DNA of 49,185 nucleotides, from the NCBI GenBank assembly GCA_964580825.1, contig CAZOLB010000003.1, positions 1 to 49,185 of the forward strand, written 5' to 3'. Of this stretch, positions 15,975 through 39,651 are shown one piece after another. How positions within the stretch are numbered: position 1 is the first letter of the stretch; each line of letters starts with the position of its first letter. The stretch is from an uncultured Gammaproteobacteria bacterium. GTDB lineage: Bacteria; Patescibacteriota; Patescibacteriia; UBA2591; UBA6264. The notes below the pieces were generated by a model that worked only from the letters and a program-made list of their open reading frames with translations, was not told the DNA's origin and did no database searches. The position numbers and the translations under genes were made by a program.

Positions 15975-16048
15975 TGGTCGGGGCACAGAGATTTGAACTC
16001 TGACTAAATCCTCCCAAAGGACTCGTGCTACCATTACACTATGCCCCG
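15975..16048 (-). tRNA. tRNA-Pro (anticodon UGG), CCA encoded
   Basis: Manual cloverleaf: acceptor CGGGGCA/TGCCCCG-A-CCA, anticodon arm AGTCC-TTTGGGA-GGATT (G37), T-arm CAGAG-TTCAAAT-CTCTG. Confidence 0.85.
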
Positions 16049-20942: not shown

Positions 20943-22268
20943 ATGTTTTATATTTTATTATTTGCGGTTTACGGTTTTTTAATCTATTTTAAGCCGAAAT
21001 ACGGCTTGGCTTTGATTTTGATTTTTTTGCCGACTTATCAGATTAAGTTTCAAATTGCAGAGATTCCTTTTACTTTTTTGGAAATAATGATTTTAATTTC
21101 TTTTTTTTGTTGGGCGATTAAAAAATGGAAAAATCTGGCCGTCGGGCAATTGAGAGATTTATTGGACGATTGGTTTTTGCCAATTTGTCTTTGGTTGCTG
21201 GTATCGACCACGGCGGTATTTATCGCTCCTGACTTGCGGGCGGCCGCCGGCGTGTGGAGGGCGTATTTTGTCGAACCAATTTTATTTTTACTTGTTTTGT
21301 TGGATTTGGCGGAGAATAAAATGAATAAAGAAAGTATTTTGGATATTATTTTCTTTGGTTTAAGCGTTTCGGCGTTTGGCTGTTCAATTTGGGCGGTTTT
21401 GCAAAAATGGTTCGGTGGCGGAGTTTGGAGTATGGAGGTTTGGGGACAGCCCGAGATTTGGCGGGCGACTGGACCCTTTTCTCATCCGAATTTTTTAGGA
21501 TTGTATTTGGCGCCGGCGATTATTTTAGGAATTGGCATTTTGATCGCGAATGCCCGTAAAAATTTCGGACTTGTTATTTATTATTCATTATTTATTATTT
21601 TGACGTTTTGGGCGTTAGTTTTAACCCGTTCGGAGGGCGCGATGGTCGGCATGGTGGCCGGATTGCTGTTTTTGGGAATTATTTTTAAAAAGAGCAGAAA
21701 ATATGTTTTAATCGGACTGGCGGCGGCGATTTTATTAGTGGCGATTTGTCCGGCCTCTCGTTATTATATTTTGGAAAAAGCGTTTTTGCGGGATTTGTCA
21801 GGAGAATTTCGTTTGAACATCTGGTCTGGAGCGGTTTCTTTATTGGAAACTTCGCCTATTTTTGGAGTTGGTCTGGACGGTTATGAAAAATTGATTGTCG
21901 ATTATCAGGCAAATAATTTTGTCGCCGGCGGCGGCCAAACGTTTTTCGCCCCGATCCAGCCGTATCCACATAATTTATTTTTAGCTGTCTGGTTGGAGTT
22001 GGGATTGGCGGGAATGATTATTTTTATCTGGATTTTAATAAAATTTTTCAGACGGGGATTTAAGAATGTTAAAAATAATGCTATAATATCGTCAACGGCA
22101 ATGGGTATGATGGTTTGCGTTTTAGTTCATGGCTTGGTCGATACGCCTTATTTTAAAAACGACTTGGCAATTGTTTTTTGGCTGATTGTCGGATTAGGGA
22201 TAATACTTGGTAATTTAAAAAAGGACGGAATGGTTAAAAAAGAATCATTGGCGCGTAGTAAAATATAA
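20943..22268 (+). CDS. O-antigen ligase / polymerase family (Wzy_C) membrane protein
   Basis: GPFSHPNFLGLYL, LTRSEGAMVG and GVGLDGYE are present in a polytopic protein. The ORF track starts at the TTG at 20925; the first ATG is at 20943. Confidence 0.75.
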   Translation: MFYILLFAVYGFLIYFKPKYGLALILIFLPTYQIKFQIAEIPFTFLEIMILISFFCWAIKKWKNLAVGQLRDLLDDWFLPICLWLLVSTTAVFIAPDLRAAAGVWRAYFVEPILFLLVLLDLAENKMNKESILDIIFFGLSVSAFGCSIWAVLQKWFGGGVWSMEVWGQPEIWRATGPFSHPNFLGLYLAPAIILGIGILIANARKNFGLVIYYSLFIILTFWALVLTRSEGAMVGMVAGLLFLGIIFKKSRKYVLIGLAAAILLVAICPASRYYILEKAFLRDLSGEFRLNIWSGAVSLLETSPIFGVGLDGYEKLIVDYQANNFVAGGGQTFFAPIQPYPHNLFLAVWLELGLAGMIIFIWILIKFFRRGFKNVKNNAIISSTAMGMMVCVLVHGLVDTPYFKNDLAIVFWLIVGLGIILGNLKKDGMVKKESLARSKI

Positions 22269-23883
22269 TATTATAGTGATTTTTTGGAGACGTGGCTGAG
22301 GGGCTGAAAGCGGCAGTTTCGAAAACTGCTATGCCCGCAAGGGCATCGGGGGTTCGAATCCTCCCGTCTCCGCCAGATGTCCTACTTTGAACCTGAGAGA
22401 TTGCAAGGGTTTTCGAGCCTTTTGGAGGTTCTTGCCCAGCATCATTCAGGTCCATTAGAACATCAAAGACTGGCGTCCATATAGGCGTCAGTTTTTGATT
22501 TTTGACGGTAAAACCATCAAAGCAAAGTTTGATCAGCGTCCTCTTTTGGTACGTGCCGCTGGCCTTAAATACCCGATCCGCGTGATCGGTAAAATCCAAA
22601 AGCTCATTAAACTTTTGCACGAATTTGTCCGATTTACCCTCGAGCTCTGCCAAACGACCCTGATACATTTCCTTCTCTTTTAAAAGCTCGTCCTGAATCT
22701 TTATAAAGACCTCGGCATCAATGATGCGTTTCGAGCGATCCATGACGATGTTCCGGATCTGCTGTTGAACCCGAACCAGCTCATGCTTGAGACTACTGCG
22801 TTCTTTTTCTTCATTGGAAAGACGCTCTTGCGCGAAATGCTGGAAATACGCATCCAACACCTTCTTAAACTTTAATGGCATGTGAACGCGAGAAAGGTGG
22901 GTAGCCACCTGATCCTCAACGGTTTCCCAACGGATATATTTGCGTTCGGTGCAATTTTTTTCGAGCCAGTGAGTACATCCATAGTAAAGATGGCCTTTTT
23001 GAGTTTGGCCGCATAACATCGAGCCACACACCGCGCACCTCATGAATCCCGAAATCGGATAGACATGTTTCCTTGTGCGATCGGCATAGTGATTGTGCTG
23101 TTCGATTATCTCCTGTACATCATCGAACGCTTTCTTGGTGACGATCGAGGGAAAGTTTGCCTGACAGGTAGCCGATCTGGTTTTTACCAAACCGTAGTAG
23201 ATCGTGTTCTGAAGCATCCTCTCGATATTTTTCTTGGTCACCCGTTTGGCGTTTTTTGTTTTCAAACCTCGTTTAGCCAGTTCATCCGCAAGCGTGTAAT
23301 AAGAATATTTGCCGGTGGCATACAAATTAAAAGCCATTTTGACGTAGGGTGCCCGGATGGTATCAACGATCAGCGATTTTGTTTTCTTATCATTTAAATA
23401 CCCGATAGGCGCCACGCCAGGGAACCGACCTCGCTCCACGGCCTCTTTAAGGCCTTTCCTGACCTCCCAGCTGATATTCTGGGATGTCCATTGAGCGATT
23501 GAGGACATGATGTTCTCGACGAGCTCTCCGGAAAAAGATTCGTCAAATTGCTCGACCACCGAGATCAACCGAACATCGTGCTTTTTGAGCATCATTTTGA
23601 TGGCCGCATAGTCGGCGACGTTGCGACACATACGATCAAGTTTGTGCATTAAAATAACGTCAACCTTAGAATCAGTCTTTGCCCGGTGAAGCATTTTTTG
23701 AAGCTGAGGACGTTCGACCGTCCGGGCCGATTCACCCTTCTCCTCGTAGACACCGTCCGGCAGAAGATTCCAATGATGATCCATGCCGTATTTTTGGCAC
23801 GCCTTGACCTGCACCGGAATACTCAATTCTCGCTCAGCCTGGCGAGTGGTAGAGACGCGGCCGTAGATTAAATAGTTAGTCAT
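22234..23883 (-). CDS. Large serine recombinase (integrase); the 3' end reads antisense through tRNA-Ser
   Basis: The N-terminal resolvase motif is YGRVSTTRQ. A recombinase domain, the zinc ribbon CAVCGSMLCGQ...YYGCTHW and a coiled-coil are present. Residues after about 502 (SGGDGRIRTPDALAG...) are the antisense translation of the tRNA. Confidence 0.85.
   Translation of the reverse strand: MTNYLIYGRVSTTRQAERELSIPVQVKACQKYGMDHHWNLLPDGVYEEKGESARTVERPQLQKMLHRAKTDSKVDVILMHKLDRMCRNVADYAAIKMMLKKHDVRLISVVEQFDESFSGELVENIMSSIAQWTSQNISWEVRKGLKEAVERGRFPGVAPIGYLNDKKTKSLIVDTIRAPYVKMAFNLYATGKYSYYTLADELAKRGLKTKNAKRVTKKNIERMLQNTIYYGLVKTRSATCQANFPSIVTKKAFDDVQEIIEQHNHYADRTRKHVYPISGFMRCAVCGSMLCGQTQKGHLYYGCTHWLEKNCTERKYIRWETVEDQVATHLSRVHMPLKFKKVLDAYFQHFAQERLSNEEKERSSLKHELVRVQQQIRNIVMDRSKRIIDAEVFIKIQDELLKEKEMYQGRLAELEGKSDKFVQKFNELLDFTDHADRVFKASGTYQKRTLIKLCFDGFTVKNQKLTPIWTPVFDVLMDLNDAGQEPPKGSKTLAISQVQSRTSGGDGRIRTPDALAGIAVFETAAFSPSATSPKNHYNIIFYYAPMILF
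22286..22375 (+). tRNA. tRNA-Ser (anticodon CGA), long variable arm, CCA encoded
   Basis: Acceptor GGAGACG/CGTCTCC-G-CCA, anticodon arm GCAGT-TTCGAAA-ACTGC, variable arm TATGCCCGCAAGGGCAT, T-loop TTCGAAT. Confidence 0.9.
22381..22393. repeat. Left terminal inverted repeat (candidate P' arm of attL)
   Basis: CCAGAT-GTC-CTACTTTGAACC; the reverse complement pairs with 26188-26202. Confidence 0.55.
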
Positions 23884-23974
23884 AGTTTTATAAAATGTTT
23901 ATTATTTTTTGACCTTTATTTAATAAATACTTCTTTAAAATAGCGGCAGGGCTCTTTGGGAGCCCTGTTGTTCG

Positions 23975-24700
23975 CTAATATTTTTTTATGTGGTATACCA
24001 GCCGGCCTAGCATCTTCGACTCCTTGAGATGGTAGGTTTTTTTGAATCCTTCCGTCTCCGGCCGAAGTTCTAAGTGGTCGCCTCGTTCATGATAGTAAGT
24101 CATGACCGGTCCGTCTGGTGTTTCCATGATCACGATGTCACCATTTTTCGGCTTGGCGTCCGCGTCGAGGATGACGAAGTCGCCGGCAAGTATCCCGGCA
24201 TCCGGTAAAAGCAAATCGGATACCCGGAGTCCGAATGGCCGATGACCGCTGGGAATTCCATCCTGTGGCATAAAAACGAATTCATTTGCTTCTTTCAAAC
24301 GAGCGTCGAGATTATCCGAGGGGATCGCCTTCAACACCGGAACCTTGTAGTGGTCGTCGACAGAAAATGTTTTTTTCAATTCCTCCAATCCTTGTTCCAT
24401 CCTGCTGGCCGCTTCGTGCACACGTTTCTCACCAACCTCTTTGATGTTGAATTTATAATTCGTCGATATGCTGACCTTTTGAATTTTTGTTTCAGCCCAT
24501 CGCTTGTTCAACTCCTCATCCGAAACACGATAGGCCTTGGCCAAAATGGCCAGCTGTTTTTGAGATGGCATCCGGGTCCCGTTCTCCAGCTGGCTGATAT
24601 AGCTCGACGAAAAACCGAGACGATCCGCGAGCTCTTTGATCGTCCATCCGTTCGTTTCTCTTTGCTGTTTTAGAAACAGCCCAAATGACATAAATGGCAT
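23975..24700 (-). CDS. CI/LexA-like repressor (XRE HTH + S24 peptidase-like C-terminal domain)
   Basis: The HTH reads WTIKELADRLGFSSSYISQLENGTRMPS. The C-terminal beta-domain reads AGILAGDFVILDADAKPKNGDIVIM and resembles S24 autopeptidases. Confidence 0.75.
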   Translation of the reverse strand: MPFMSFGLFLKQQRETNGWTIKELADRLGFSSSYISQLENGTRMPSQKQLAILAKAYRVSDEELNKRWAETKIQKVSISTNYKFNIKEVGEKRVHEAASRMEQGLEELKKTFSVDDHYKVPVLKAIPSDNLDARLKEANEFVFMPQDGIPSGHRPFGLRVSDLLLPDAGILAGDFVILDADAKPKNGDIVIMETPDGPVMTYYHERGDHLELRPETEGFKKTYHLKESKMLGRLVYHIKKY

Positions 24701-24769
24701 ATTTTTGTGTGTTTAAGCTTATCCACTCCTTACGACCATCTTAATATACAATAGCAAAATTGTAAAGAA

Positions 24770-24827
24770 TAAGCAATTATGCTTATCCACACCCTCTATG
24801 TTTGACGAATTAAGCAAAAATGCTTAA
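24770..24827. promoter_or_regulatory. Divergent switch region: two 16-bp palindromic operators plus a sigma70-like promoter for the Cro-like gene
   Basis: TAAGCA-ATTA-TGCTTA at 24770-24785 and TAAGCA-AAAA-TGCTTA at 24811-26 within TTAAGCAAAAATGCTTAA (24810-24827). TTGACG (24802-07), N17, TAATAT (24825-30) overlaps the second operator. GCTTATCCAC is repeated at 24717-26 and 24781-90. Confidence 0.65.
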
Positions 24828-24859
24828 TATGATTATAGAGGTCTATTAGCGAATCAACT

Positions 24860-25066
24860 ATGAAAAAAACACCGACCAACGTACGCCTAAGAGATCTTCG
24901 GATCAAGAAGGGGCTGACGCAATACCAGCTCGCCCGGATTCTCGGCTTCCGGCACAACACCGCAATCAGCCGATATGAGACCGGCCGGAAGCGGCCAAAT
25001 TTGGAAACCGCCCAAAGGATTGCCCTCGCGCTTGGATCAAAAGTCGAGGAAGTCTTTTTGCCGTGA
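24860..25066 (+). CDS. Cro/XRE-family HTH protein
   Basis: 68 aa with the HTH KGLTQYQLARILGFRHNTAISRYETGRKRP. It is divergent from the CI-like gene. Confidence 0.8.
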   Translation: MKKTPTNVRLRDLRIKKGLTQYQLARILGFRHNTAISRYETGRKRPNLETAQRIALALGSKVEEVFLP

Positions 25067-25116
25067 GTGTGAGGTCAATAAAAGTGTGAGGTCACTCTTA
25101 TGAACTACCGCACCAC

Positions 25117-25395
25117 ATGTCGAAGCCAACAAAGGACGAGGAAGCTCTCATTGAGCTTACCAAGGGCGCTCTCGCCGACGTTCTCGGTCGTGAGCCGACC
25201 AAGCAAGAAGTTTGGAAAGTCCACGCCGGCTTCAAGCGCATGGCATTCATGCTGTTGGAGCACTTAGATCACATCAAAAAGTATGAAAACCAAAATCCTG
25301 ATCAAGAGACTCACCCGGACGATTTGGAAACGGATGACCAAAAAACCGCTCACCCGGAGGGAACTCTTGGCGAGGAGGGAGAACCTCTTGAGTAA
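25117..25395 (+). CDS. Hypothetical protein (acidic C-terminal tail)
   Basis: 92-aa ORF inside the element with no recognisable motif. Its last third overlaps a second ORF in another frame. Confidence 0.4.
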   Translation: MSKPTKDEEALIELTKGALADVLGREPTKQEVWKVHAGFKRMAFMLLEHLDHIKKYENQNPDQETHPDDLETDDQKTAHPEGTLGEEGEPLE

Positions 25396-25495
25396 TTTCA
25401 CCATTCGAGAACTTGAAAATCCGACTATCCGAAGGGACTTCTGCCGAGCGATGGACAACATCGACCGGGCACTGCCCAAAGCCCGGGAATGGTAG
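25283..25495 (+). CDS. Hypothetical small basic protein (alternative or overlapping frame)
   Basis: 70-aa Arg/Lys-rich ORF overlapping 25117..25395. I cannot tell which frame is expressed in the overlap. Confidence 0.3.
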   Translation: MKTKILIKRLTRTIWKRMTKKPLTRRELLARRENLLSNFTIRELENPTIRRDFCRAMDNIDRALPKAREW

Positions 25496-25595
25496 ATAGC
25501 CCCTTACTCTCCCCTCAATGGCGCCAGACGTGAAGGGAGGAATAAGGCGCGATCTCGGCCGAGGTCGACGGGGCACGCCTTTATTTTTCGTGGCC

Positions 25596-26051
25596 ATGTC
25601 GGATGAAAAAATAAAAGTTAGGGATCTGCGGAATGGCGATTGGTATTGGATCAGTAAAGTCTTGCTCGATGAGTACGGCGGCAAGATCAAACCGATCGGC
25701 ATTGCCGTTTACAACTGCCTGGCTGAACACGCTAACCAGGAGGGTTTTTGTTTTCCGTCCCACAAACATATCGCCGATAGGATCGGCGCGAGCATCTCAA
25801 GCGTGCAACGAGGCATCCGACAAATGATAAAGCTTGGAATAATCCGCAAAGGCCGCCGCCGATATTCCAATGTGTATTACCTGTTGAAATTAGACCGGTC
25901 AGATAGACCGAACTCGAACAAGACCAGTCAGTCAGACCGGCACATCGGTCATACAGACCGGTCAGATCGGTCTGTGGGAACTACTAACAAGAATAAAGAA
26001 AAAGAATTTATTAAAAAGAATTACGGATCGAATAAAAAAAACTGTGGATAA
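25596..26051 (+). CDS. HTH-domain replication-initiator-like protein
   Basis: CFPSHKHIADRIGASISSVQRGIRQMIKLGIIRK matches the 'FPS...LA...G.S..TV.R.I..L...G.I' winged-HTH signature common in plasmid/phage replication proteins. The start is set at MSDEKIK; the ORF track starts at 25518. Confidence 0.6.
   Translation: MSDEKIKVRDLRNGDWYWISKVLLDEYGGKIKPIGIAVYNCLAEHANQEGFCFPSHKHIADRIGASISSVQRGIRQMIKLGIIRKGRRRYSNVYYLLKLDRSDRPNSNKTSQSDRHIGHTDRSDRSVGTTNKNKEKEFIKKNYGSNKKNCG
25892..25974. repeat. Iteron-like AGACCG(GTCAGAT) repeats inside the 3' end of the replication-type gene
   Basis: AGACCGGTCAGAT at 25892-25904, AGACCG at 25905-10, AGACCAGTCAGTCAGACCGG at 25921-40, and the inverted pair CAGACCG-GTCAGAT-CGGTCTG at 25954-74. 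Confidence 0.7.
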
Positions 26052-26070
26052 CTTTAAAGAACTAAAGTCG

Positions 26071-26175
26071 ATGCTCGCAGAGAAAATGTCTATTGAAGGG
26101 ATAAAGATTAAAATTATAGATGGCAAGAAGCATATGTGGTCTGGAAAACAGTGGGTAGCAGTCGATGACGCTTAG
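26071..26175 (+). CDS. Possible small ORF (34 aa; 43 aa if it starts at the GTG at 26044)
   Basis: MLAEKMSIEGIKIKIIDGKKHMWSGKQWVAVDDA. It is below the ORF-track cutoff, and the GTG overlaps the preceding stop. It would be the last gene before the right end of the element. Confidence 0.3.
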   Translation: MLAEKMSIEGIKIKIIDGKKHMWSGKQWVAVDDA

Positions 26176-26187
26176 ACTATTTTTAAT

Positions 26188-26202
26188 GGTTCGGGAAGTA
26201 GG
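26188..26202. repeat. Right terminal inverted repeat (candidate P arm of attR)
   Basis: GGTTCGGGAAGTAG-GTC-GAACCCGAGCG; the inverted partner is 22381-22393. GC falls back to host level to the right. Confidence 0.55.
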
Positions 26203-26386
26203 TCGAACCCGAGCGTTTAATTCGTTATCAACAATTAATTTATGTTTAAAGATTTCTGTTATTGAGACCCGAAGTAACGATGGTTTTAATTTTATCTGCC
26301 ATCTCGTTGCTAGGTTCTCTTTTGCCAGCCGGATGGACTAAATTATCTCGGGCTGGAAACAGAGAACCTAATAAAATAATAAATAT

Positions 26387-26605
26387 ATGAGCAAGGATCA
26401 ATTGGCGGTGGGCAATTGTCCGCATTGTACAAAAATTATATTTAAGGATGCCGTGTTTAACTCCGAGGGATCTTTTTGTATGCGTTGTCCACATTGCGAC
26501 AAACTACTTAAAGTCATAATAAAAAGGAAAATTGAAATCATTATATCCCCCTGCAGTGATTGCAAAAACGACAAAGAGTGTACTTCTAATAAATATTTGA
26601 CATAG
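26387..26605 (+). CDS. Small zinc-ribbon protein
   Basis: 72 aa with CPHC...CPHC plus CSDC...C. No obvious RBS, so coding status is uncertain. Confidence 0.45.
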   Translation: MSKDQLAVGNCPHCTKIIFKDAVFNSEGSFCMRCPHCDKLLKVIIKRKIEIIISPCSDCKNDKECTSNKYLT

Positions 26606-26630
26606 TATAATTATGGGTGTATACTCATAA
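26597..26630 (+). promoter_or_regulatory. Near-consensus sigma70-type promoter with an overlapping 20-bp imperfect palindrome, upstream of the metal-cluster operon
   Basis: TTGACA (26597-602), N17, TATACT (26620-25). TTATGGGTGTATACTCATAA (26611-30) matches its own reverse complement at 16 of 20 positions. Confidence 0.55.
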
Positions 26631-26687
26631 TAGGCAATGTACAAAAGGTCGATTGCCAACCATTATTAACTATTTAACAACAAATAT

Positions 26688-26948
26688 ATGCCAAGACAAA
26701 ATGGTACAGGTCCGTTAGGATTTGGCGCCGGAACCGGCAGAGGCATGGGTCCTTGCGGCGGTGGTATGGCCTATGGTCGCCGAGGGAGTGGCCGCGGATT
26801 GGGCTGGAGAAGATTTTGGGGATATTATCCCGCTCCTACCCCTTCAAAAAAAGATGAAGCCGAAATGCTTTCAGAAGAGGCAGAAATCATGGAAGAAGAA
26901 TTGAAGAATATCAAATCCCGATTAGCCGAGCTTAAAGGTCAAAAATAA
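26688..26948 (+). CDS. DUF5320-type protein (Gly-rich N-terminus, C-terminal coiled coil)
   Basis: MPRQNGTGPLGFGAGTGRGMGPCGGG...EEAEIMEEELKNIKSRLAELK matches the characteristic MPRGDGTGP.G.GP.TGRG..C architecture. Confidence 0.8.
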   Translation: MPRQNGTGPLGFGAGTGRGMGPCGGGMAYGRRGSGRGLGWRRFWGYYPAPTPSKKDEAEMLSEEAEIMEEELKNIKSRLAELKGQK

Positions 26949-26954
26949 ATAACC

Positions 26955-27009
26955 GAAATTATTTTCTATTGAAATTATTTTCTATTAATACTTTTATAGA
27001 AAATAATTT
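26955..27009. repeat. 16-mer GAAATTATTTTCTATT as a perfect tandem pair plus one inverted copy
   Basis: Direct copies at 26955-70 and 26971-86. The inverted copy ATAGAAAATAATTT is at 26996-27009. Copy 2 and the inverted copy can form a 14-bp AT-rich hairpin followed by TTTT. Confidence 0.8.
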
Positions 27010-27042
27010 TGGCATATTAATTTATTATTAATATCTAATAAT

Positions 27043-27327
27043 ATGATGTCACAAATACCAATCAATCTGGAGAAAATCAATAAAACCGATTTGGATATGG
27101 AAATATTGAGAATCGGAGTGATAGCGGAATTGGATGCTATAAATTTATATGAACAAATGTCTGCCATAGCGCAAGATGAAAATATAAAGAAAATGCTTTT
27201 AGATATTGCTAAAGAAGAAAAGGCGCATGTGGGAGAATTTCAAGCCTTGTTATTAAATAGAGACAAAGAACAAGCCGCAGAGCTGGAAGCGGGCAAAGAA
27301 GAAGTTAAAAAAGAGGTTGGCGAATAA
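27043..27327 (+). CDS. Mini-ferritin-like protein of the EncFtn / ferritin-like four-helix type
   Basis: IAELDAINLYEQM...DIAKEEKAHVGEFQALL parallels the E..E....Y / EE..H di-iron ligand pattern of encapsulated-ferritin-like proteins. 94 aa. Confidence 0.6.
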   Translation: MMSQIPINLEKINKTDLDMEILRIGVIAELDAINLYEQMSAIAQDENIKKMLLDIAKEEKAHVGEFQALLLNRDKEQAAELEAGKEEVKKEVGE

Positions 27328-27377
27328 ATTAAAATAAGAGGTTTTGAGTCATTTAATAAAAATTAAAATCATAAATT

Positions 27378-28103
27378 ATGAGATTAAACAATAAAGTAGC
27401 TATAGTAACCGGGTCAACCCTGGGTATTGGCAAGGGAATTGCAGAGAAGCTTATTAATGAAGGAGCAAAAGTTGTTTTTTCCGATATAAATGGTGACGAT
27501 TCTTTGGTTGCGGGATTTGGAGGAAATGCCATATTTGTAAAATGCGACGTATCAAAAATGGAAGAAGTGGAAAATTTAATTAATCAAGCCGTTACACATT
27601 TCGGCCAGTTGGATATATTAGTTAATAATGCCGGTATTTATCCTTTTGTGCCTTTTGCAAAAATGACTGAGGCCGATTGGGATAGGGTCATGTCTGTTAA
27701 TTTAAAAAGTGTTTTTTTATGTTCTCAAGCCGCGGCTAAAGTAATGCCAGAAGGCGCAAGAATAATAAATATTTCTTCGATTGCCTCTTTTGTTGGTTTT
27801 TCCGGCCTGGTTCACTATTGTGCTTCGAAAGGTGGAATTAGTGGCATGATCAGAGCCTTAGCTTTGGAATTGGCAGATAGAAAGATTACGGTTAATGCTG
27901 TTGCTCCGGGTGCGATTGAAACTCCGGGCGCCAATCAAGGTTTAACTGATGAATCGAGAAAGCAGACTATAGCCATGATACCGCTATCGCGCATGGGTCA
28001 GCCGGAGGATATTGCGGGAGCAGTTGCTTTTTTAGCTTCTGATCAAGCCAGCTATATTACTGGTCAGACTATTATAGTTGATGGCGGATGGACATTGAGA
28101 TAA
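27378..28103 (+). CDS. SDR-family oxidoreductase (FabG-like)
   Basis: TGSTLGIGKGIA is the cofactor motif, with NNAG and the catalytic YCASKGG. Confidence 0.85.
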   Translation: MRLNNKVAIVTGSTLGIGKGIAEKLINEGAKVVFSDINGDDSLVAGFGGNAIFVKCDVSKMEEVENLINQAVTHFGQLDILVNNAGIYPFVPFAKMTEADWDRVMSVNLKSVFLCSQAAAKVMPEGARIINISSIASFVGFSGLVHYCASKGGISGMIRALALELADRKITVNAVAPGAIETPGANQGLTDESRKQTIAMIPLSRMGQPEDIAGAVAFLASDQASYITGQTIIVDGGWTLR

Positions 28104-28137
28104 GCTCGGTTTGCTAATTTAAATAACAATCAAAAAT

Positions 28138-28461
28138 ATGAAAATAGCAATAAGCTCAATCGGAAAAAGCCTTGATGACAATATTGCTGAGGTTTTTGGG
28201 CGGTGCCCCTATTTTATCATTGTTGATATTGAAAAAAGTGGGATTAAGGAAAATGAAATTATTAAAAATATCGGCGATAGCCAGATGAGCGGTGCGGGTA
28301 TGGCGGCCGCTAAAATGATAGCTGAAAAAGGAGTCAATATTGTTATTGCAAAGAATGTGGGTCCAAGAGCATTAGATGTTTTAAAGCAATTCAATATTGA
28401 AATAGTTGAAGCTAATGGAAAAATTAGTAAGGCATTGCAAGATTTTATTAAAAAAATTTAA
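28138..28461 (+). CDS. NifX/NifB-C-terminal-type (dinitrogenase Fe-Mo cofactor family) cluster-binding protein
   Basis: 107 aa. FGRCPYFIIVD...GAGMAAAKMIAEKGVNIVIAKNVGPRA is the typical family pattern. Confidence 0.75.
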   Translation: MKIAISSIGKSLDDNIAEVFGRCPYFIIVDIEKSGIKENEIIKNIGDSQMSGAGMAAAKMIAEKGVNIVIAKNVGPRALDVLKQFNIEIVEANGKISKALQDFIKKI

Positions 28462-28462
28462 T

Positions 28463-28831
28463 ATGAAAAATTTAAAAATCGTTATTCCTACAGACGGTCA
28501 GAACGGCTTAGATGAAAAAGTAGCTGATCATTTTGGCCGTTCCCTAACTTATACTTTTCTTGATGAGAAAGGTGAAATTATTGAGATAATAAAAAATACA
28601 AGCGAGCATATGGGAGGGCAAGGATTACCACCTGAATTAATGAAACAGCACGGAGCTGATATTTTACTGTGCCGCGATCTCGGTCCTAAGGCAATTAGCT
28701 TATGCGCGGAATTAGATATAGACGTTTATACTTGTCAGGCAGAAACGGTCAAAGATATTTTTAAAATGTGGCAGAGTAATAAACTTAAAAAAGCGGGCGC
28801 AGAAGATGCTTGTGAACATCATAAAATATGA
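28463..28831 (+). CDS. Second NifX/NifB-C-terminal-type cluster-binding protein
   Basis: MKNLKIVIPTDG...HFGRSLTYTFLD...GADILLCRDLGPKA. The start is set at the ATG at 28463, 1 nt after the preceding stop. The C-terminal tail reads CEHH. Confidence 0.7.
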   Translation: MKNLKIVIPTDGQNGLDEKVADHFGRSLTYTFLDEKGEIIEIIKNTSEHMGGQGLPPELMKQHGADILLCRDLGPKAISLCAELDIDVYTCQAETVKDIFKMWQSNKLKKAGAEDACEHHKI

Positions 28832-29688
28832 GAATTGCCATCACTGGCGGCAAGGGCGGAACAGGCAAATCGATGGTTGCCACTTCGTTGGCCGTCCTGT
28901 TTGCTAAAAATAAAAAAACACTCTTGGTTGATGCCGACGCCGAATGCCCTAATGACCATTTATTGTTGGCGGTTAAATTGAAAAAAGCATCGATAGTTAA
29001 TCAAACTATTCCTAAATGGAATTTTAAAAAATGCGTTAAATGCGGATCTTGCGCTTTGGCTTGCCAAAAAAACGCTATCGTTTTTATTAAAGACAGATAT
29101 CCGGCTTTTGTGAAAGACGTTTGCATCGGTTGTAAGGCCTGTATTTCTTCTTGCTCTTTCGGTGCGATAACTGAAGATAAGAAAGAGATCGGCAAGATTT
29201 ATGCCGGTAAGAATTATAATATTAGTCTAATTTCCGGGGAGCTGAAACTTGGGGAATTAGCATCCGGCGAAGTGGTAGCCGAGGTTAGAAAATATGCGGA
29301 AAAAATCAATGAGCAGTTGAAAGCAGACATTATTTTGATAGATTCGGCGGCCGGAGTCGGTTGTCCGGTGATTGCCTCTTTAGTAGGCACTGATTATATT
29401 GTGGCAGTAACCGAGCCCACGCCGTCTGCCCTACATGATTTAAAGCGCGTATTGCATCTGGCCAAACATTTTAAAATAAAACACGGTATTATTATTAATA
29501 AATATGATCTGTCAAAAAGTTATTGTTTGCAGATTGAAAAATTTGCCACAAAAAATAAAATCTCGATTATGGGCAAAATTCCTTATCGCCAAGATTTTGT
29601 TGATTCAATGATAAAAATGAAGCCAGTAGCAGAAATAAACCCGGATTATCAAAAATTATTTTTAGATATTATTAAACAAATAAGATAA
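28828..29688 (+). CDS. MinD/ParA-superfamily P-loop ATPase with an inserted 2x[4Fe-4S] ferredoxin domain
   Basis: The deviant Walker A is GGKGGTGKS. The Cys clusters are CVKCGSCALAC and CIGCKACISSC. The start overlaps the previous stop by 4 nt. Confidence 0.85.
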   Translation: MRIAITGGKGGTGKSMVATSLAVLFAKNKKTLLVDADAECPNDHLLLAVKLKKASIVNQTIPKWNFKKCVKCGSCALACQKNAIVFIKDRYPAFVKDVCIGCKACISSCSFGAITEDKKEIGKIYAGKNYNISLISGELKLGELASGEVVAEVRKYAEKINEQLKADIILIDSAAGVGCPVIASLVGTDYIVAVTEPTPSALHDLKRVLHLAKHFKIKHGIIINKYDLSKSYCLQIEKFATKNKISIMGKIPYRQDFVDSMIKMKPVAEINPDYQKLFLDIIKQIR

Positions 29689-29696
29689 ACAATCAG

Positions 29697-30746
29697 ATGA
29701 AAGAAAAAATTGCGACAATTTCAATATTAGCCAATATGATTTTAGCCGGAGGCAAGATTACCGTCGGCATTTTTTCCAATTCAGCCGCGATATTGGCGGC
29801 CGGGTTAGATTCATTTGCTGATATTTTTTCTTCTACTATCAGCTATATTGGAATTAAAATATCCGGCAAGCCGGCTGATGAGGAACATCCATATGGACAT
29901 TATAAATTTGAGGTTTTGGGAGGCGCTATTATTACTTTGATAATTCTGGCGACTGGTATCGGGATAATTTACGATGCTTGTCAAAATTTTTTTAAACCGG
30001 CGAATATAGCTATTAGTTATTTATCGTTTGGTGTAATGATTTTTTCAGTGTTAATTAATGAAGCAATGTCGAGACTGAAAATTCATTATGGCAAAAAAGA
30101 AGGTTCAGTCAGCCTGCTTTCAGATGGAGTCCATTCAAAAATTGATGTTTATACATCGATAGCGATTTTAGTAGGATTATTTTTCACTAAATACTGGATT
30201 TATGCTGATGCAGTTTTGGCCTTACTAATGGGAGTCTATATTATTAAAGAAGCGTTTACGATCGGTAAGGAAGCGATCAGTTCGCTTTTGGATGTTTCCG
30301 CTGGAGCGGAAATAGAGGCGAAGATAAAATCAATTGCCAAATGGCAAAATATTGAAATTAATAATTTAAAAACCCAGAAAAAAGGATTGATAATTACAGC
30401 CAATTTGGAAATCAAATTGCCGAATAATTTGAATGTTGAAGAGGCGGCTAAAATATCCGATAAGTTAAGACAACAGCTGGTTGAAAAAATTGATAATCTG
30501 CAATATGTGGTTATTCAGATTTCCAGCCATAGTATTGAAACCAATTTTTATAAGCCGGAATTCGGGCAAGGTTTCGGCTGGCAAAGAAAAGGCAAATTTA
30601 AAGAAAAAATTAAAGAAGCAACTGGCCGAGGGCCGGAGGGTAATTGCGTCTGTGAAAAATGCGGCTATAAAACACCGCATCAAAGAGGCATTCCCTGCTC
30701 AAACTTAAAATGTCCAAACTGCGATATAAATTTAAAAAGAGAATAA
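29697..30746 (+). CDS. Cation diffusion facilitator (CDF) metal exporter with a C-terminal Gly-rich/zinc-ribbon extension
   Basis: Six-TM CDF core (DSFADIFSS, HPYGHYKFE, LSDGVHSKIDV) plus a cytoplasmic domain. The extra tail reads GRGPEGNCVCEKCGYKTPHQRGIPCSNLKCPNCD. Confidence 0.8.
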   Translation: MKEKIATISILANMILAGGKITVGIFSNSAAILAAGLDSFADIFSSTISYIGIKISGKPADEEHPYGHYKFEVLGGAIITLIILATGIGIIYDACQNFFKPANIAISYLSFGVMIFSVLINEAMSRLKIHYGKKEGSVSLLSDGVHSKIDVYTSIAILVGLFFTKYWIYADAVLALLMGVYIIKEAFTIGKEAISSLLDVSAGAEIEAKIKSIAKWQNIEINNLKTQKKGLIITANLEIKLPNNLNVEEAAKISDKLRQQLVEKIDNLQYVVIQISSHSIETNFYKPEFGQGFGWQRKGKFKEKIKEATGRGPEGNCVCEKCGYKTPHQRGIPCSNLKCPNCDINLKRE

Positions 30747-30765
30747 TTAAATTAATACAAATATT

Positions 30766-31053
30766 ATGGCCAGACCAGCACGTTGTTTATGCAGAGGAAT
30801 AAAATTTAATCCTGATATTGTTTATTTTAAACCGCAAGGCGTACCAATTCACAATCTGCAAGTTGTTGAACTTACAATGGAAGAAATTGAGGCATACCGT
30901 TTGCGCCATATTAATGATTTGGAGCAAAAGGAAGCGGCCGGGAAAATGCATACCTCCCAAAGCACATATCAAAGAATACTTTATTCGGCTTATAAAAAAA
31001 TTGCCGATGCCTTAATTAATGGCAAGGCTATAAAAATTATTAAACATGAATAA
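30766..31053 (+). CDS. DUF134 / UPF0251 family putative DNA-binding protein
   Basis: MARPARCLCRGIKFNPDIVYFKPQGVP...LTMEEIEAYRL...QKEAAGKMHTSQSTYQRIL..A.KKIADALINGKAIKI matches the family end to end. Confidence 0.85.
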   Translation: MARPARCLCRGIKFNPDIVYFKPQGVPIHNLQVVELTMEEIEAYRLRHINDLEQKEAAGKMHTSQSTYQRILYSAYKKIADALINGKAIKIIKHE

Positions 31054-31744
31054 TATGCTTTTAGAAGTTAGGAATCTAAATGTTACTTTAAACAAAGAAA
31101 AGATACTGGAAAATTTATCTTTTCAAGTTGAACCAGGAGAAATTTTAACCATTTTGGGTCCGAATGGCGCCGGGAAAAGTGTGCTTTTAAAAACTCTTTT
31201 GGGTTTTTTGCCATATGAAGGAAGCATTATTTGGCATCAAAAAATGAAAATCGGTTATTTGCCACAAGGTTTAAATCAGTTAAAGGTTAAAGATTTTCCG
31301 CTAACAGTACAGGATTTTTTTGCATTAAAAAATACCGCTCTAACATCCGAAGAAATTATTGAATTTTTGCATCTGGTAGGATTAGAAAAAGACGTTCTTT
31401 TTAAAACAGCTGGCAGTTTGTCGGGAGGACAATTCCAAAGGATGCTCGTGGCCTGGGTGCTGATTTCTCATCCAGACGTTATATTTTTTGATGAACCGAC
31501 GACAGGGATAGATATTGGCGGAGGAGAAACAATTTATTCTCTTCTACATACTATCCGGGAAAAAGAAAAATTAACAATTTTTCTCGTAACGCATGACCTG
31601 CATATCGTATACAAGCATTCTACCAGTGTATTATGTTTAAGCCGCAAGGGGCACAACTGTTTTGGAGCACCAAAAGAAATATTAAATACAGAGACGCTGG
31701 AGCAAATTTTTGGCACGGAAATTAAATTTTATGAACATCATTAA
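31046..31744 (+). CDS. Metal (Zn/Mn/Fe-type, ABC-3 system) ABC transporter ATP-binding protein
   Basis: Walker A is GPNGAGKS, the signature is LSGGQFQRM, and Walker B is IFFDEPT. It overlaps DUF134 by 8 nt. Confidence 0.85.
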   Translation: MNNMLLEVRNLNVTLNKEKILENLSFQVEPGEILTILGPNGAGKSVLLKTLLGFLPYEGSIIWHQKMKIGYLPQGLNQLKVKDFPLTVQDFFALKNTALTSEEIIEFLHLVGLEKDVLFKTAGSLSGGQFQRMLVAWVLISHPDVIFFDEPTTGIDIGGGETIYSLLHTIREKEKLTIFLVTHDLHIVYKHSTSVLCLSRKGHNCFGAPKEILNTETLEQIFGTEIKFYEHH

Positions 31745-31757
31745 TACATAAATAAAT

Positions 31758-32531
31758 ATGACATATCAGATTATCCTTACGTTAATAAGTGGGATTTTTA
31801 TAAGTGGAGTTGCTGGTTATCTCGGTACGTTAATGCTTTCAAAAAAAATGTCGGTGGTCGCCGGCCCACTTGCTCATTTAGCTCTACCCGGAGTAGCCCT
31901 GGCACTTATCTATGGATTTAGCATCTCATTGGGAGCGTTCCCATTTGTCATTTTAGGTGCATTCTTAATTTGGCTTTTAGAAAAAAGAACAAAATTACCA
32001 ATGGAAAATTTAGCCGCGATTATTTTTGCATTCGGAGTTGGAACGGCACTTCTTATTCTGCCAATTGAGCAAGCAGAAGAGGCATTAATCGGGAATATTA
32101 CAAAAATAACCTTGTCAGAAACAATTATAACGGTTATCTTGAGTCTTCTCGTTTTTTATGTAGCAAAAAAGATTTATCAAAAAATAATGTTGATGAATAT
32201 TTATGAAGATTTGGCAGTAATAGAGGGAACTAATAAAAATTTATGTAATCTATTTTATCTATTAAGCATCGCTATGGTTGTCGCGTTGGGCGTTTATTTG
32301 GTAGGCGGGCTAATAACTGTTGCCCTAATTGCGATACCGGCGGCATCGGCAAAAAATGTAAGCAAAGGTTTGCATTTTTATAAAATTTCAGCAGTCGTTT
32401 TTGGGGTTATTTCAGCGGTCGCTGGAATTTTTATTGCCCGTTTTATTCATCTCCCAACCGGTCCTTTAGTAATTATTTCTGGCGTGGTATTGTTTTTGAT
32501 TACAGTAATTTTTCGCAAGCGATTATTCTAA
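31758..32531 (+). CDS. ABC-3 family metal transporter permease
   Basis: 257 aa with about 8 TM helices, directly after the ATPase. No substrate-binding protein gene is nearby. Confidence 0.75.
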   Translation: MTYQIILTLISGIFISGVAGYLGTLMLSKKMSVVAGPLAHLALPGVALALIYGFSISLGAFPFVILGAFLIWLLEKRTKLPMENLAAIIFAFGVGTALLILPIEQAEEALIGNITKITLSETIITVILSLLVFYVAKKIYQKIMLMNIYEDLAVIEGTNKNLCNLFYLLSIAMVVALGVYLVGGLITVALIAIPAASAKNVSKGLHFYKISAVVFGVISAVAGIFIARFIHLPTGPLVIISGVVLFLITVIFRKRLF

Positions 32532-32541
32532 TTTTTTAATT

Positions 32542-33294
32542 ATGCAACCAAAAATAAAAAAAGTTTTGCTGATTTTTTCTGGCAAAGGTGGCGTCGGTAA
32601 ATCTACGGTAGCCGTAAATTTGGCTATTGCTCTTGCCAAAAAAGGATTAAAGATTGGCTTACTTGATGCTGATATTCACGGTCCGAATTTAGCTCTAATG
32701 CTTGGAGCGCAAAATGGGGCAGTGTTCCCTTATGGTGAAAATCAAATCCTGCCGGTAGAAATAAGCAAAAATTTATCTTTAGTTTCTATCGCGTATTTTA
32801 TACCAAAGCTTGATACGCCGATAATTTGGCGAGGTCCGGCTAAGATGAAAATTATTGAAAGATTTGTTAAGGATGTAACTTGGGGCGATTTAGACTGGTT
32901 GATAGTCGATTCCCCTCCGGGTACAGGCGACGAACCTCTTTCTATAGCTCAACTCTTACCAAAAGCCGGTGCGATTATAGTTACCACTCCTCAAGATGTA
33001 TCTCTGCTTGATTCGAAAAAAGCCATAAATTTTGCTAGGGAGCTAAAATTAAAAATTCATGGTCTAATTGAAAATATGAGTGGACTAAGTTGCCCTCATT
33101 GCGGTAAAACGATCAACTTGTTTAAAAAGAATGGCGGATCAATAATTGCTAAACAGTATAAAATACCATTTTTAGGATCTATTCCAATTGATCCTGAAAT
33201 TGTTATTTCCGGAGATAGTGGGATTCCCGTGACAATGAATGAGAATTTCAAAATTTCAAAAATATTTTTAGAAATTGCAAATAAAATATTATGA
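32542..33294 (+). CDS. Mrp/NBP35 (ApbC-type) Fe-S cluster carrier ATPase
   Basis: SGKGGVGKSTVAVNLA, DSPPGTGDE and the CPHCG cluster-ligand motif are present. Confidence 0.85.
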   Translation: MQPKIKKVLLIFSGKGGVGKSTVAVNLAIALAKKGLKIGLLDADIHGPNLALMLGAQNGAVFPYGENQILPVEISKNLSLVSIAYFIPKLDTPIIWRGPAKMKIIERFVKDVTWGDLDWLIVDSPPGTGDEPLSIAQLLPKAGAIIVTTPQDVSLLDSKKAINFARELKLKIHGLIENMSGLSCPHCGKTINLFKKNGGSIIAKQYKIPFLGSIPIDPEIVISGDSGIPVTMNENFKISKIFLEIANKIL

Positions 33295-33695
33295 AAAATA
33301 GAACTATTATACCAACTATTTTATTTATTATCATTTTAATTTTTTCTTTTATAGCGTTTTCGCAAGAAAAAAGTAAAAACCAGCCAGAAATGATTGAGAT
33401 TACTAATCAAATATCTGAACAAGGTCAAATTATTCTTTTTTATAGTGACAATTGTCCGCATTGTAAAATAGTAGAAGATTATCTTAAGCAATATCAGATT
33501 GACAAAAAGATTTCTTTTGCTCAAAAGGAGGTTTATTATAATCAAAACAACACCAAAGAGCTTGAAATCAAAGCAAAAATTTGCGGATTGCCAACCGATT
33601 CAATCGGCGTGCCATTTCTGTGGGACGGGAAAAAATGTTTGATCGGCGATCAAAATATTATTGATTTCTTTAAACAAAAAACTAATGGGCGATAA
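33291..33695 (+). CDS. Membrane-anchored/secreted thioredoxin-like protein (CPHC)
   Basis: An N-terminal hydrophobic helix is followed by ILFYSDNCPHCKIVEDYL. It resembles the N-terminal domain of the 5358..6611 product. Confidence 0.7.
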   Translation: MKNRTIIPTILFIIILIFSFIAFSQEKSKNQPEMIEITNQISEQGQIILFYSDNCPHCKIVEDYLKQYQIDKKISFAQKEVYYNQNNTKELEIKAKICGLPTDSIGVPFLWDGKKCLIGDQNIIDFFKQKTNGR

Positions 33696-33696
33696 T

Positions 33697-34212
33697 ATGA
33701 AAAAAATATCAATTTATCTTTTATTTGTCTTTGCGATAAGTTTTCTTTTCGCCCAAAAAGCTTTGGCAGTTTGCCCAATTTGCACTATCGCCGTCGGCGC
33801 CGGAGTTGGACTTTCCCGCTGGCTGGGAATTGATGATGCAATAACCGGATTATGGGTTGGCGGATTTATTGTTTCTATGATTACTTGGACGGAGGGCTGG
33901 TTGGAAAAGAAAAATATCCACTTCAAAGGCAGAATTTTCGTCAATATTTTCGTTTACTACGCCTTGATTATTATTCCGCTTTTTTACTCCGGCATTATTG
34001 GCAATCCGCTAAATACTTTATGTGCCTGCGGATTGGATAAATTACTTTTTGGAATAATCGCAGGTAGTTTGGCTTTTTGGTTTGGCGCGAGCTGGTATTT
34101 TCATTTGAAAGAAAAAAATAACGGCCACGCTTATTTTCCTTTTCAAAAAGTCGTTATGCCAATTTTGCCACTTATAATTTTAAGCATAATTTATTATTTT
34201 CTAACCAAATAA
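33697..34212 (+). CDS. Hypothetical polytopic membrane protein with CPIC and CAC motifs
   Basis: The signal-like N-terminus MKKISIYLLFVFAISFLFAQKALA is followed immediately by VCPICTIAVGAGVG. About 4 further TM helices and LCACG are present. I recognise no family. Confidence 0.55.
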   Translation: MKKISIYLLFVFAISFLFAQKALAVCPICTIAVGAGVGLSRWLGIDDAITGLWVGGFIVSMITWTEGWLEKKNIHFKGRIFVNIFVYYALIIIPLFYSGIIGNPLNTLCACGLDKLLFGIIAGSLAFWFGASWYFHLKEKNNGHAYFPFQKVVMPILPLIILSIIYYFLTK

Positions 34213-34216
34213 TCAT

Positions 34217-34756
34217 ATGAACAACAATCAAAATCCTATAAAAAATTTAAACGAATTTATTCAAAAAGTGGGCGAGATAAAAAAGCAAGAAAAAATGGAT
34301 TTATCGTCCGATCAAGATTTGAGTATTGCCATAATGAATTTAGTAAGTATTGAGGAACATTTCTTTTTTACTGGCGCTAAATTTGGAAAAACTGAATACT
34401 ACGACATGATTAAGGATGTGAGGAAAATGAGAAAAGAGCTACTTAAAAAAATTATCAAAGAATACGAGGGCGAAATTTGGTGCATTTCCAAACACCTGCT
34501 CGCCGCTTCTATGCGCCTTATGGAAGTCGGCACCAAACAATTAGGAATGAATAAAAAGGACGAGGCATATGATCTTTTCGGCAAAGCCTACAATCTTTAT
34601 TCCTTATTTTGGGGACTCAATATGAAACTTTTCAATGTCGGCGATATCAAAAAAATAGATGATAAAGCTCTAAATAAACAAGATAAAGAGAAAAAAGGAT
34701 TTATAGGAAAACTTGGCGAATTAATAAAAAGAGTAATCGATTGCTGTATCGAATAA
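34217..34756 (+). CDS. Hypothetical helical protein ending in CCIE
   Basis: 179-aa, Lys/Glu-rich ORF with a C-terminal DCCIE. No recognisable motif. Confidence 0.5.
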   Translation: MNNNQNPIKNLNEFIQKVGEIKKQEKMDLSSDQDLSIAIMNLVSIEEHFFFTGAKFGKTEYYDMIKDVRKMRKELLKKIIKEYEGEIWCISKHLLAASMRLMEVGTKQLGMNKKDEAYDLFGKAYNLYSLFWGLNMKLFNVGDIKKIDDKALNKQDKEKKGFIGKLGELIKRVIDCCIE

Positions 34757-34848
34757 AAAATGTTTTAAAAAAATATTAAGTTTTTTACTTTTTACATCTA
34801 AACCCAAATGATTGATGTTTGGATAATAACTAATTAAATAATATAACT

Positions 34849-35076
34849 ATGGGAAAACAAATATTTTTAACTGAGGCAGAGGAAGGCAGGGAAGTCGAAA
34901 TTATTTCTATTGAAGCAGGATTGCATGCGACCAAAAGATTGTCTGATTTGGGTTTGACTCCTAAAACTAAAATAAAGGTTTTAAGAAAAGCAATCTCCGG
35001 CCCGATAGAAATTGAGTTAAGGGGCTCAAAATTAGTAGTGGGCAGAGGGTTGGCAAGCAAAATATTTATAAAATAA
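34849..35076 (+). CDS. feoA: Ferrous iron transport protein A
   Basis: 75 aa. GREVEIISI...RLSDLGLTPKTKIKVL...GPIEIELRGSKLVVGRGLASKIFI is the FeoA SH3-like pattern. Confidence 0.85.
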   Translation: MGKQIFLTEAEEGREVEIISIEAGLHATKRLSDLGLTPKTKIKVLRKAISGPIEIELRGSKLVVGRGLASKIFIK

Positions 35077-35083
35077 ATTTAAT

Positions 35084-37015: not shown

Positions 37016-37035
37016 TTACTTACCATTTAAACACT

Positions 37036-38224: not shown

Positions 38225-38326
38225 AAATTACCTTATAAATTATTCATTAGTTTATTAGTGAGTTTTCTGGTATTGGTTCAATTACACCCCACTGTTCGTT
38301 TGACTTATATTTTTTAATAATATACA

Positions 38327-38941
38327 ATGGAAGCAAGAGTATTTAATGCTTCCGTCAAACATATACTTATGGACAGCTTAATTGCCAAATTATACCAATC
38401 CCCCAAAACCATCCTTACCACAAAGGACTTGGCTTTGCTTTGGGAGGAAACCAACCCGATCAATTTAAAGTCTAAGATTGGCTATTATGCCAAGCAAGGC
38501 ACATTAATCCGATTAACTCGGGGGATTTTCGCAAAGGATAAAAATTATAATTCTAAAGAATTGGCGACGAGCATTTATACGCCATCCTACATCAGCTTTG
38601 AGACGGTCTTGCGAGAAGCTGGAGTTATTTTCCAACACTATGACACCATTTTTGTTGCCGGTCCCTGGCCGTTGACCAAGAAAATCGGACAATATACATT
38701 TACTTTTAGAAAACTTAAAGACAGCGTGCTTTATAGTTCGGCTGGAGTTAAGAATGAAAATAATTTCAGCATTGCCACATTAGAGCGGGCGTTTTTGGAT
38801 ATGATTTATCTGTTTCCGAAATACTATTTTGATAATCTGAAATCAATAAACTGGGAGATGTGTTTTGAACTGGCTAAAATTTATGATAATCAGCAATTGA
38901 TCAAACGCTTAACTAAATATCAAAAAAATTATGCCGAATAA
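38327..38941 (+). CDS. abiEi: AbiEi-family antitoxin / transcriptional regulator (type IV TA)
   Basis: ILTTKDLALLW...YYAKQGTLIRLTRGIFA matches the AbiEi N-terminal wHTH pattern. It overlaps the downstream NTase gene by 11 nt. Confidence 0.75.
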   Translation: MEARVFNASVKHILMDSLIAKLYQSPKTILTTKDLALLWEETNPINLKSKIGYYAKQGTLIRLTRGIFAKDKNYNSKELATSIYTPSYISFETVLREAGVIFQHYDTIFVAGPWPLTKKIGQYTFTFRKLKDSVLYSSAGVKNENNFSIATLERAFLDMIYLFPKYYFDNLKSINWEMCFELAKIYDNQQLIKRLTKYQKNYAE

Positions 38942-39641: not shown

Positions 39642-39651
39642 AAATCACATT

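Follow-up and report, generated by a model that had tools for sequence, protein, structure and literature searches.

In the myxophage Mx8, the phage attachment site (attP) lies within the integrase coding sequence, so that the gene becomes recombinant upon integration and acquires a different 3′ end (PMC6070905; see also PMC4383910). For the SSV-type ("suicidal") integrases of archaeal viruses and plasmids, PMC7253208 and PMC4383910 describe a recombination site inside the open reading frame (ORF) and a tRNA gene as the target. In the integration-dependent immunity of the mycobacteriophage BPs and its relatives, attP is located in the repressor gene and the C-terminus of the product depends on the integration state (PMC4557955). 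A large survey of large serine recombinases (LSRs) never mentions tRNA (PMC10083194). It has also been stated in the literature that serine integrases do not target tRNA genes. Here, we describe an LSR-encoding element in contig CAZOLB010000003.1 (assembly GCA_964580825.1), of which the whole stretch of 49,185 nucleotides (nt) was analysed and is referred to as the window; distances from the tRNA are given as negative nt counted from the tRNA end. The best explanation of this locus, to which we assign a probability of about 0.7, is an integrative element of approximately 4.24–4.28 kb that belongs to a widespread family in Patescibacteria, occupies the 3′ ends of tRNA-Ser or tRNA-Asp genes, and has a recombinase whose tail is read across the junction with the host DNA.

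The 549-amino-acid (aa) ORF contained Resolvase, Recombinase, and Zn_ribbon_recom domains in a Pfam scan and was therefore assigned to the large serine recombinases. The catalytic resolvase domain (PF00239; residues 6–153, E 9e-30) carries a YGRVST motif, with S11 invariant across 33 homologues, and resembles the catalytic domain of the TP901-1 integrase (E 8e-14). Both PF07508 and PF13408 were matched, a match to SprA of SPbeta spans residues 138–420, and long helices at residues 337–429 of an AlphaFold2 (AF2) model correspond to an embedded coiled coil. The initial annotation had described this ORF as open to 22234 and as running antisense through tRNA-Ser. This was confirmed: the ORF at 22234..23883(−) overlaps the entire tRNA-Ser(cga) identified by ARAGORN (22286..22375(+)) in antisense and has its stop within the 3′ end of the adjacent Wzy gene. 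In the integrated state the tail reads ...SRTSGGDGRIRTPDALAG...PMILF, or in a longer excerpt ...QVQSRTSGGDGRIRTPDALAG...PMILF. Coordinates of all features are collected in Table 1.

A protein search followed by scans of genome, viral, and metagenome collections yielded more than 120 family loci, nearly all labelled Patescibacteria or candidate phyla radiation (CPR). From these, we compiled 89 distinct Patescibacteria junctions and 79 different occupied tRNA sites, together with nine unoccupied tRNA-Ser/Asp genes from the same loci for comparison. The close homologues (approximately 33, with 63–83% identity and lengths of 492–569 aa) diverged only past a common ...V-x-x-x-x-S-G-G. The ORF entered an antisense tRNA-Ser or tRNA-Asp gene in 44 of 44 genome loci and likewise in the metagenome loci, and at every locus that included the 3′ end of the gene it ran directly into the antisense 3′ end of the tRNA. 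An open run of 47 codons through antisense tRNA, as in the window, is unremarkable on its own; the part not attributable to chance is that the final 60 codons ahead of the junction were free of in-frame stops in all 89 cases. The targets at these junctions were tRNA-Ser(gct) (25), tRNA-Ser(gga) (19), tRNA-Ser(cga) (15), tRNA-Ser(tga) (11), and tRNA-Asp(gtc) (7), the other 12 being at a contig end or partial. All targeted genes, whether tRNA-Asp or any isoacceptor of tRNA-Ser, end in ...CCGCC(A). Read in the sense of the integrase, the junction consensus was ...GGTTCWAA....ATC/TGGCGG (the slash marks the junction), followed by the acceptor stem of the resident tRNA. Clearly tRNA-antisense tails were present in 104 of 129 full-length proteins, the remainder having mostly short tRNA-derived ends; the segment after the Ser measured 3–228 aa with a median of 17, and always began SGG-x-G-x-IRT where the T-loop is TTCGAAT. 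Throughout the family, the C-terminus of the recombinase depends on the DNA across the junction. The proposal that the attachment core lies inside the integrase frame, with the residues after about Gly504 set by the DNA beyond it, thus extends from the window to the whole family: homologues do not stop short of residue 500, and although the crossover had to be remapped, it still falls inside the ORF.

Several loci differed in what surrounds the junction. In a strain variant of the same host (L051 13398–15331, equal to L063 1–1950), an unrelated LSR of 507 aa runs antisense into tRNA-Pro(tgg) with the tail ...LLVGAQRFEL before its stop, and an inverted copy of about 100 nt of its own 3′ end, including CGACCA, is located just upstream of the gene; the counterpart of this site in the window, tRNA-Pro at 15975–16048, is unoccupied. 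Integrase genes that lack a stop of their own at the 3′ end of a tRNA gene may therefore have a wider occurrence in these bacteria. In further loci (L036/L127/L128, L116, L118), the P arm, the attP arm at the integrase end, is followed by an 18–23-nt copy of the tRNA 3′ end, 95–160 nt of other DNA, and then a complete tRNA, which suggests either that the recombinase needs no more than about 18 nt of tRNA or that the fragment was displaced by another island. In L049 (3255–3396) and L151 (9520–9697), ATCTGGCGG precedes a conserved non-tRNA sequence, ..TACTCGGGTATGGTACCC..GTAAGGGT..GTGGGTCG.GGTC. This sequence after TGGCGG had no match in Rfam or ARAGORN, and could represent an unrecognised target RNA gene or an attP junction.

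The position of the crossover was approached by comparing occupied and unoccupied sites. Between near-identical elements at tRNA-Ser and tRNA-Asp, the common sequence stopped after TGGCGG(A). At occupied sites, ...CCGCCA was followed by GAT in 78 of 79 cases and by GGT in the other, and an additional occupied site (L031) reads CCGCCC/GAT. GAT followed none of the nine unoccupied genes, five of which lack an encoded CCA. Since GAT or GGT is present at all occupied and no unoccupied sites, GAT was taken as element DNA and the exchange as falling near G73–A76 of the tRNA. The crossover is therefore most likely placed, on this comparison, at 22372–22375, within the codon of Gly504 and not between R501 and T502; Gly504 (22372–22374) straddles the proposed site and is Gly in either state. 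The element probably donates a (C)CA end to the tRNA, so the last bases, (CC)A, of tRNA-Ser(CGA) in the window would be of element origin. The GTC core at 22379–22381, which the initial annotation had proposed as the crossover, lies 5–9 nt farther from the tRNA, and the GAT that had been assigned to the host belongs to the element. A crossover dinucleotide GC or CC within 22372–22374 would suit 7–9 of the approximately 14 types of far flank; a single dinucleotide serving every far junction was rejected, as it fails at the X-gene, L011, and L107 flanks. The element is flanked by no long direct repeats, and identity at the junctions is limited to 6–7 nt at most. A break in a Logan unitig at 22374 was considered as evidence for the bacterial attachment site (attB) and set aside as ambiguous, since it may reflect either an in-branch or an out-branch. 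A 5-bp offset rule for the zinc-domain motif, applied to TTCGAACC of the tRNA and to TTTGAACC of the P arm, would put the centre at TGGC[GG]/[GA]; it is consistent with the above, but partly circular, and was set aside. The half-site next to the integrase (22375..22397) would act as a binding site for the enzyme.

The opposite end of the element had initially been placed at 26202–26204, which gave an element of 3.8 kb (22382..26204) bounded by a shared GTC and encoding an integrase of 507 aa (ending YFPNH) when excised and of 549 aa when integrated; an empty site would then consist of tRNA-CCA-GATGTCGAACCCGAGCG followed by the Zn-ribbon gene. The arithmetic behind it was recomputed and is correct, since joining 26204 to 22382 at GTC yields 507 aa ending in ...QVQSRTYFPNH. 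The joined sequence GGTTCGGGAAGTAGGTCCTACTTTGAACC is near-palindromic, GC content falls near 26050, a metagenome contig (L108) begins about 20 nt past the hairpin at 26191–26212, and many pairwise homologies end near −3845. However, the palindrome does not outscore a dozen unrelated places in the window, which is chance level, and the motif on which the end was based, TTAATGGTTCGGGAAGTAGGTC (found once, at 26183–26204), has its GTC in the loop of a conserved internal hairpin with stem 26191–26195/26208–26212. At least 31 related elements have this hairpin in the corresponding position, and its stem shows compensatory changes (TCGGG/CCCGA in 12 loci, CCGGG/CCCGG in 7, TTGGG/CCCAA in 3), with a loop beginning (G/T)TCGAC. 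DNA past 26204 is conserved beside elements at different tRNAs and in different hosts, including a small Zn-ribbon ORF with same-position tblastn matches in approximately 40 loci and found beside every tRNA type, near-identical elements share DNA as far as −4247, and GAT is derived from the element. As 26204 lies inside the element and the crossover nearer to the tRNA, the 507-aa form is unsupported, and a boundary at this position is scarcely credible. The stem-loop itself separates the replication-initiator-like gene from the Zn-ribbon ORF and may serve as an origin or terminator; element variants also have a mosaic breakpoint here.

The size of the element was estimated from pairs of elements with 94–99.7% identity in different flanks, between which homology was lost at −4242 to −4250 (at −4247 for L084 vs. 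L094, 99.7% identical, and for L012 vs. L094, 99.5% identical). Because near-identical elements are found in different flanks, a unit of about 4.25 kb must have moved recently. A contig from the JGI metagenomes (L071) corresponds exactly to 22370..26611 of the window (4242 nt), and an independent megahit contig (L066) also ends at 26611; the alternative, 26654/26655 (...GATT/GCCA), resembles the far junctions of several relatives, where the flank starts with GCC(A/C), as expected for a displaced G73-C74-C75. The element would extend from about 22375 to 26611–26656, or 4.24–4.28 kb. A displaced tRNA gene fragment (the Islander signature) was limited to a GCC(A/C) remnant of at most 3–4 nt at some far junctions, with nothing longer in the window. 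Fuzzy matching and Smith-Waterman scans for a far half-site, with the reverse-complemented P arm as query, gave only chance-level candidates, including the 26202–26204 site and one at 26630–26650. Some loci share both the element and the same far flank beside different tRNAs: L012 and L084 (99.8% over 7 kb; Ser-gct vs. Asp) and the window and L017 (Ser-cga vs. Ser-gga). Such sharing would possibly stem from recombination between element copies at different tRNAs. An optional gene of about 0.9 kb (MSEYYTAQRVRGLYDS...CPRCFYYDRKLG...EL, then a stop) abuts the far end at −5180..−4250 whatever the tRNA type in L001, L003, L012, L019, L020, L080, L091, and L117, and is displaced in L022 and L047. 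In a Doudnabacteria contig (L151 673–4742), a set resembling a diversity-generating retroelement (RVT_1 reverse transcriptase, bAvd, and a 673-aa protein) is located directly past the far end.

The flanking Wzy and DUF5320 proteins, looked up by exact match, led to 13–15 contigs, all with an occupied site. When JGI metagenomes were searched for the P arm followed by the common far-end motif within 30 nt, there were 0 matches. Contigs of approximately 3.3–4.2 kb were linear pieces without terminal overlap. A sequence with CAGGTTCAAAGTAGGACATCT followed by anything but GGCGGAGACGG would represent attP, and one with ...CCTCCCGTCTCCG joined to non-element DNA would represent attB. The occupancy of the same site in all 13–15 contigs of the host and the lack of a circle among the search results would fit a decayed remnant that is immobile, has lost its original stop, and has no excised state. 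This is very unlikely, given that conservation of the recombinase is high, including the catalytic Ser and many invariant columns, copies of 99.5–99.7% identity exist in different contexts, the same open junction recurs in 89 cases, and in three samples the assembly graph is interrupted at the boundaries of the element.

The mechanism we propose for a mobile element of this family is as follows. The element would insert at the 3′ end of a tRNA-Ser or tRNA-Asp gene ending ...CCGCC(A). The recombinase gene has no stop before the element ends; its last ~8 codons would double as the integrase-proximal attP half-site, and with the crossover in codon 504, translation would end in whichever DNA lies past the junction. 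In the integrated state this DNA is the antisense tRNA, which adds 45 host-encoded residues in the window; in the free circle the far end of the element would presumably be read instead. Depending on where the junction is placed, the predicted free-state product of the window has a length of 510–574 aa; with the far end at 26655, reading by hand would give an integrase of about 513 aa (...TSGNRPFVHCLL). In the AF2 model built on the family alignment, the last secondary-structure element is a helix at residues 471–479, and residues 480–549 have predicted local distance difference test (pLDDT) values of 25–34. PHROG integrase homology stops at residue 467. The exchanged segment is thus predicted to be a disordered tail that starts about 25 residues past the folded protein.

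Whether the exchange of this tail serves a function was considered separately. Host- and element-encoded tails could give the integrase a different stability or directionality, in the manner of IntP/IntX of Mx8 or of the tagged integrase or repressor of integration-dependent-immunity phages, and thereby offset the lack of an obvious directionality factor. None of the 89 junctions has gained a stop, although single-base changes in TGG, CAA, and AAA codons could create one; Pfam and PHROG scans recognised no recombination directionality factor (RDF) or Xis gene in the element; and in Mx8 the new 3′ end alters integrase behaviour (PMC6070905). Against this, the tails span 3–228 aa in length and show no conservation beyond what the tRNA dictates, they are predicted to be disordered and lie past the last folded element, the predicted free-state tails also appear to differ among relatives, and the constraint on the attP half-site as DNA explains the missing stop equally well. 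A functional switch of this kind is consequently held to be unlikely. In particular, a tuned switch is unlikely because the tail lies past the last structured element, ranges over 3–228 aa, and mirrors only tRNA sequence. Most likely, the change of isoform is tolerated as a side effect of accommodating attP in the 3′ part of the coding sequence, and is not a calibrated regulatory device. A more far-reaching proposal would make this the first described LSR lineage specialised on tRNA genes, which reads the generic T-arm (TTCGAACC) plus the 3′ end ...CCGCC, crosses at G73–C75, gives the tRNA a new (C)CA end, and uses the junction-dependent tail as a signal for directionality or turnover that replaces a directionality factor; taken as a whole, this is quite improbable.

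Several points weigh against the interpretation of a mobile element with a junction-dependent integrase tail. Translation of the tail, and expression of the gene from the integrated copy, are predictions. No excised circle or empty attB was found in any collection, and the free-state C-terminus is likewise predicted. GC, the dinucleotide that fits best, is a palindrome, an unusual feature among serine integrases, with CC as the alternative, and the GCC signature is absent from some far flanks (X-gene type, L011, and L107). The far end in the window is either 26611 or 26655, and L017 shares DNA past both candidates (DUF5320, DUF134, and Mrp) despite its location at a different tRNA-Ser.

Table 1. 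Features of the element and its target in the window.
Feature	Position	Strand	Basis
tRNA-Ser(CGA), integration target	22286..22375	+	ARAGORN; comparison of occupied and unoccupied 3′ ends
LSR ORF, integrated-state reading, 549 aa	22234..23883	-	ORF list; domains; PHROG 95 integrase, E 2.5e-95
Element-encoded part of recombinase, residues 1–503	22375..23883	-	Family junction alignment; invariant S503/G504/G505
Host-encoded tail, residues 505–549, and stop codon	22234..22371	-	Antisense tRNA-Ser, 17-nt spacer, 3′ end of Wzy gene
Most likely crossover region, tRNA G73-C74-C75-A76 (inferred)	22372..22375	.	Family identity limits; origin of GAT; far flanks GCC(A/C)
Integrase-proximal attP half-site, also last ~8 codons of gene	22375..22397	.	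AGATGTCCTACTTTGAACCTGAG on + strand; conserved TTTGAACC at 22386–22393; 89 junctions
CI/LexA-like repressor (helix-turn-helix (HTH) and S24 peptidase), intact	23975..24700	-	Pfam, PHROGs
Cro-like HTH regulator	24860..25066	+	Pfam, PHROGs
92-aa ORF without family match, kept in related elements	25117..25395	+	Family scan; element comparison
Replication-initiator-like protein (HTH_36; PHROG replication initiation O-like)	25518..26051	+	Pfam, PHROGs
Conserved internal stem-loop TCGGG-AAGTAGGTCGAA-CCCGA	26191..26212	.	At least 31 loci; compensatory stem changes
Small Zn-ribbon ORF (CPHC...CPHC), belongs to element	26390..26605	+	tblastn, ~40 loci; alignment
Element far end, two candidates	26611..26657	.	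26611/26612 (two independent contigs stop); 26654/26655 (...GATT/GCCA)

In addition to the genes listed in Table 1, the element encodes a 43-aa ORF. Virion structural or packaging genes were not found in the 4.2-kb unit by Pfam and PHROG scans; the element is a small integrative replicon and not a prophage. Within the repressor gene, a 32-mer at 24041–24072 is 81% identical to the 3′ end of tRNA-Ser. Since the residues encoded by this 32-mer, LELRPETEGFK, are conserved at the protein level among relatives, the match is probably due to chance. The tmRNA tag of the host is ANRNLAFAVA. The genes flanking the element are metal-homeostasis genes. A long co-directional block at 26688–44238 comprises DUF5320, a rubrerythrin-like gene, SDR, two NifX-like genes, MinD/Mrp-type ATPases, a CDF transporter, DUF134, a Zn/Mn ABC transporter, and FeoB, and then AbiEii, RadC, and a Dam methylase. 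Its borders are tRNA-Arg and an unoccupied tRNA-Asp (44600–44675) that faces inward and ends CCGCCA. This block may be an island; the idea of a larger island with cargo (26688–44250) rests on the DUF5320, DUF134, and Mrp genes shared with L017 and on the downstream AbiEii, RadC, and Dam. Third-party annotation records of metagenome-assembled genomes with this Patescibacteria-type element are in several cases titled "uncultured Gammaproteobacteria" (loci L001, L005, L009, L015, L020, L028, and others), and these bins are probably mislabelled.

LSRs with tRNA targets and attP in their own coding sequence appear undescribed in the literature searched, where an ORF-spanning attP is known for tyrosine recombinases (Mx8, SSV) and not for serine integrases. 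A single family here combines both traits; its more than 120 loci, with five tRNA targets between them, all belong to Patescibacteria, a poorly understood group. Its targets form a natural set of attB variants around a single enzyme scaffold, of interest to the engineering of integrase specificity, and the family adds a small self-contained integrative replicon for organisms without genetic tools. It also calls for caution in annotation, as the C-terminal 3–228 residues of these database proteins are antisense tRNA and not selected protein sequence.

Compared with integration-dependent immunity, the element shares an attP located inside a gene and a protein C-terminus tied to the integration state. 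The analogy drawn initially does not carry over to the repressor, which in the window (23975..24700) is complete and located 1.6 kb from the junction; here the affected gene is the integrase. The SSV-type integrases are tyrosine recombinases whose gene integration splits into two inactive parts, whereas the catalytic and DNA-binding domains of this LSR are left intact. With the phage LSRs (A118, Bxb1, phiC31, TP901-1, and SprA of SPbeta) the enzyme has in common the Resolvase, Recombinase, and Zn-ribbon domains, a long coiled coil, and the absence of long direct repeats; it differs from them in that tRNA genes are the targets, several per lineage, and attP overlaps the enzyme's own coding sequence. 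Mx8 IntP/IntX is similar in that the attP crossover lies inside the integrase ORF, the 3′ end is replaced (here with 89 of 89 junctions open), and the target is a tRNA gene region. However, the Mx8 enzyme is a tyrosine recombinase whose altered C-terminus was shown to change its activity, whereas in the family described here only serine-recombinase domains are present and the exchange is confined to a disordered tail past residue ~504.

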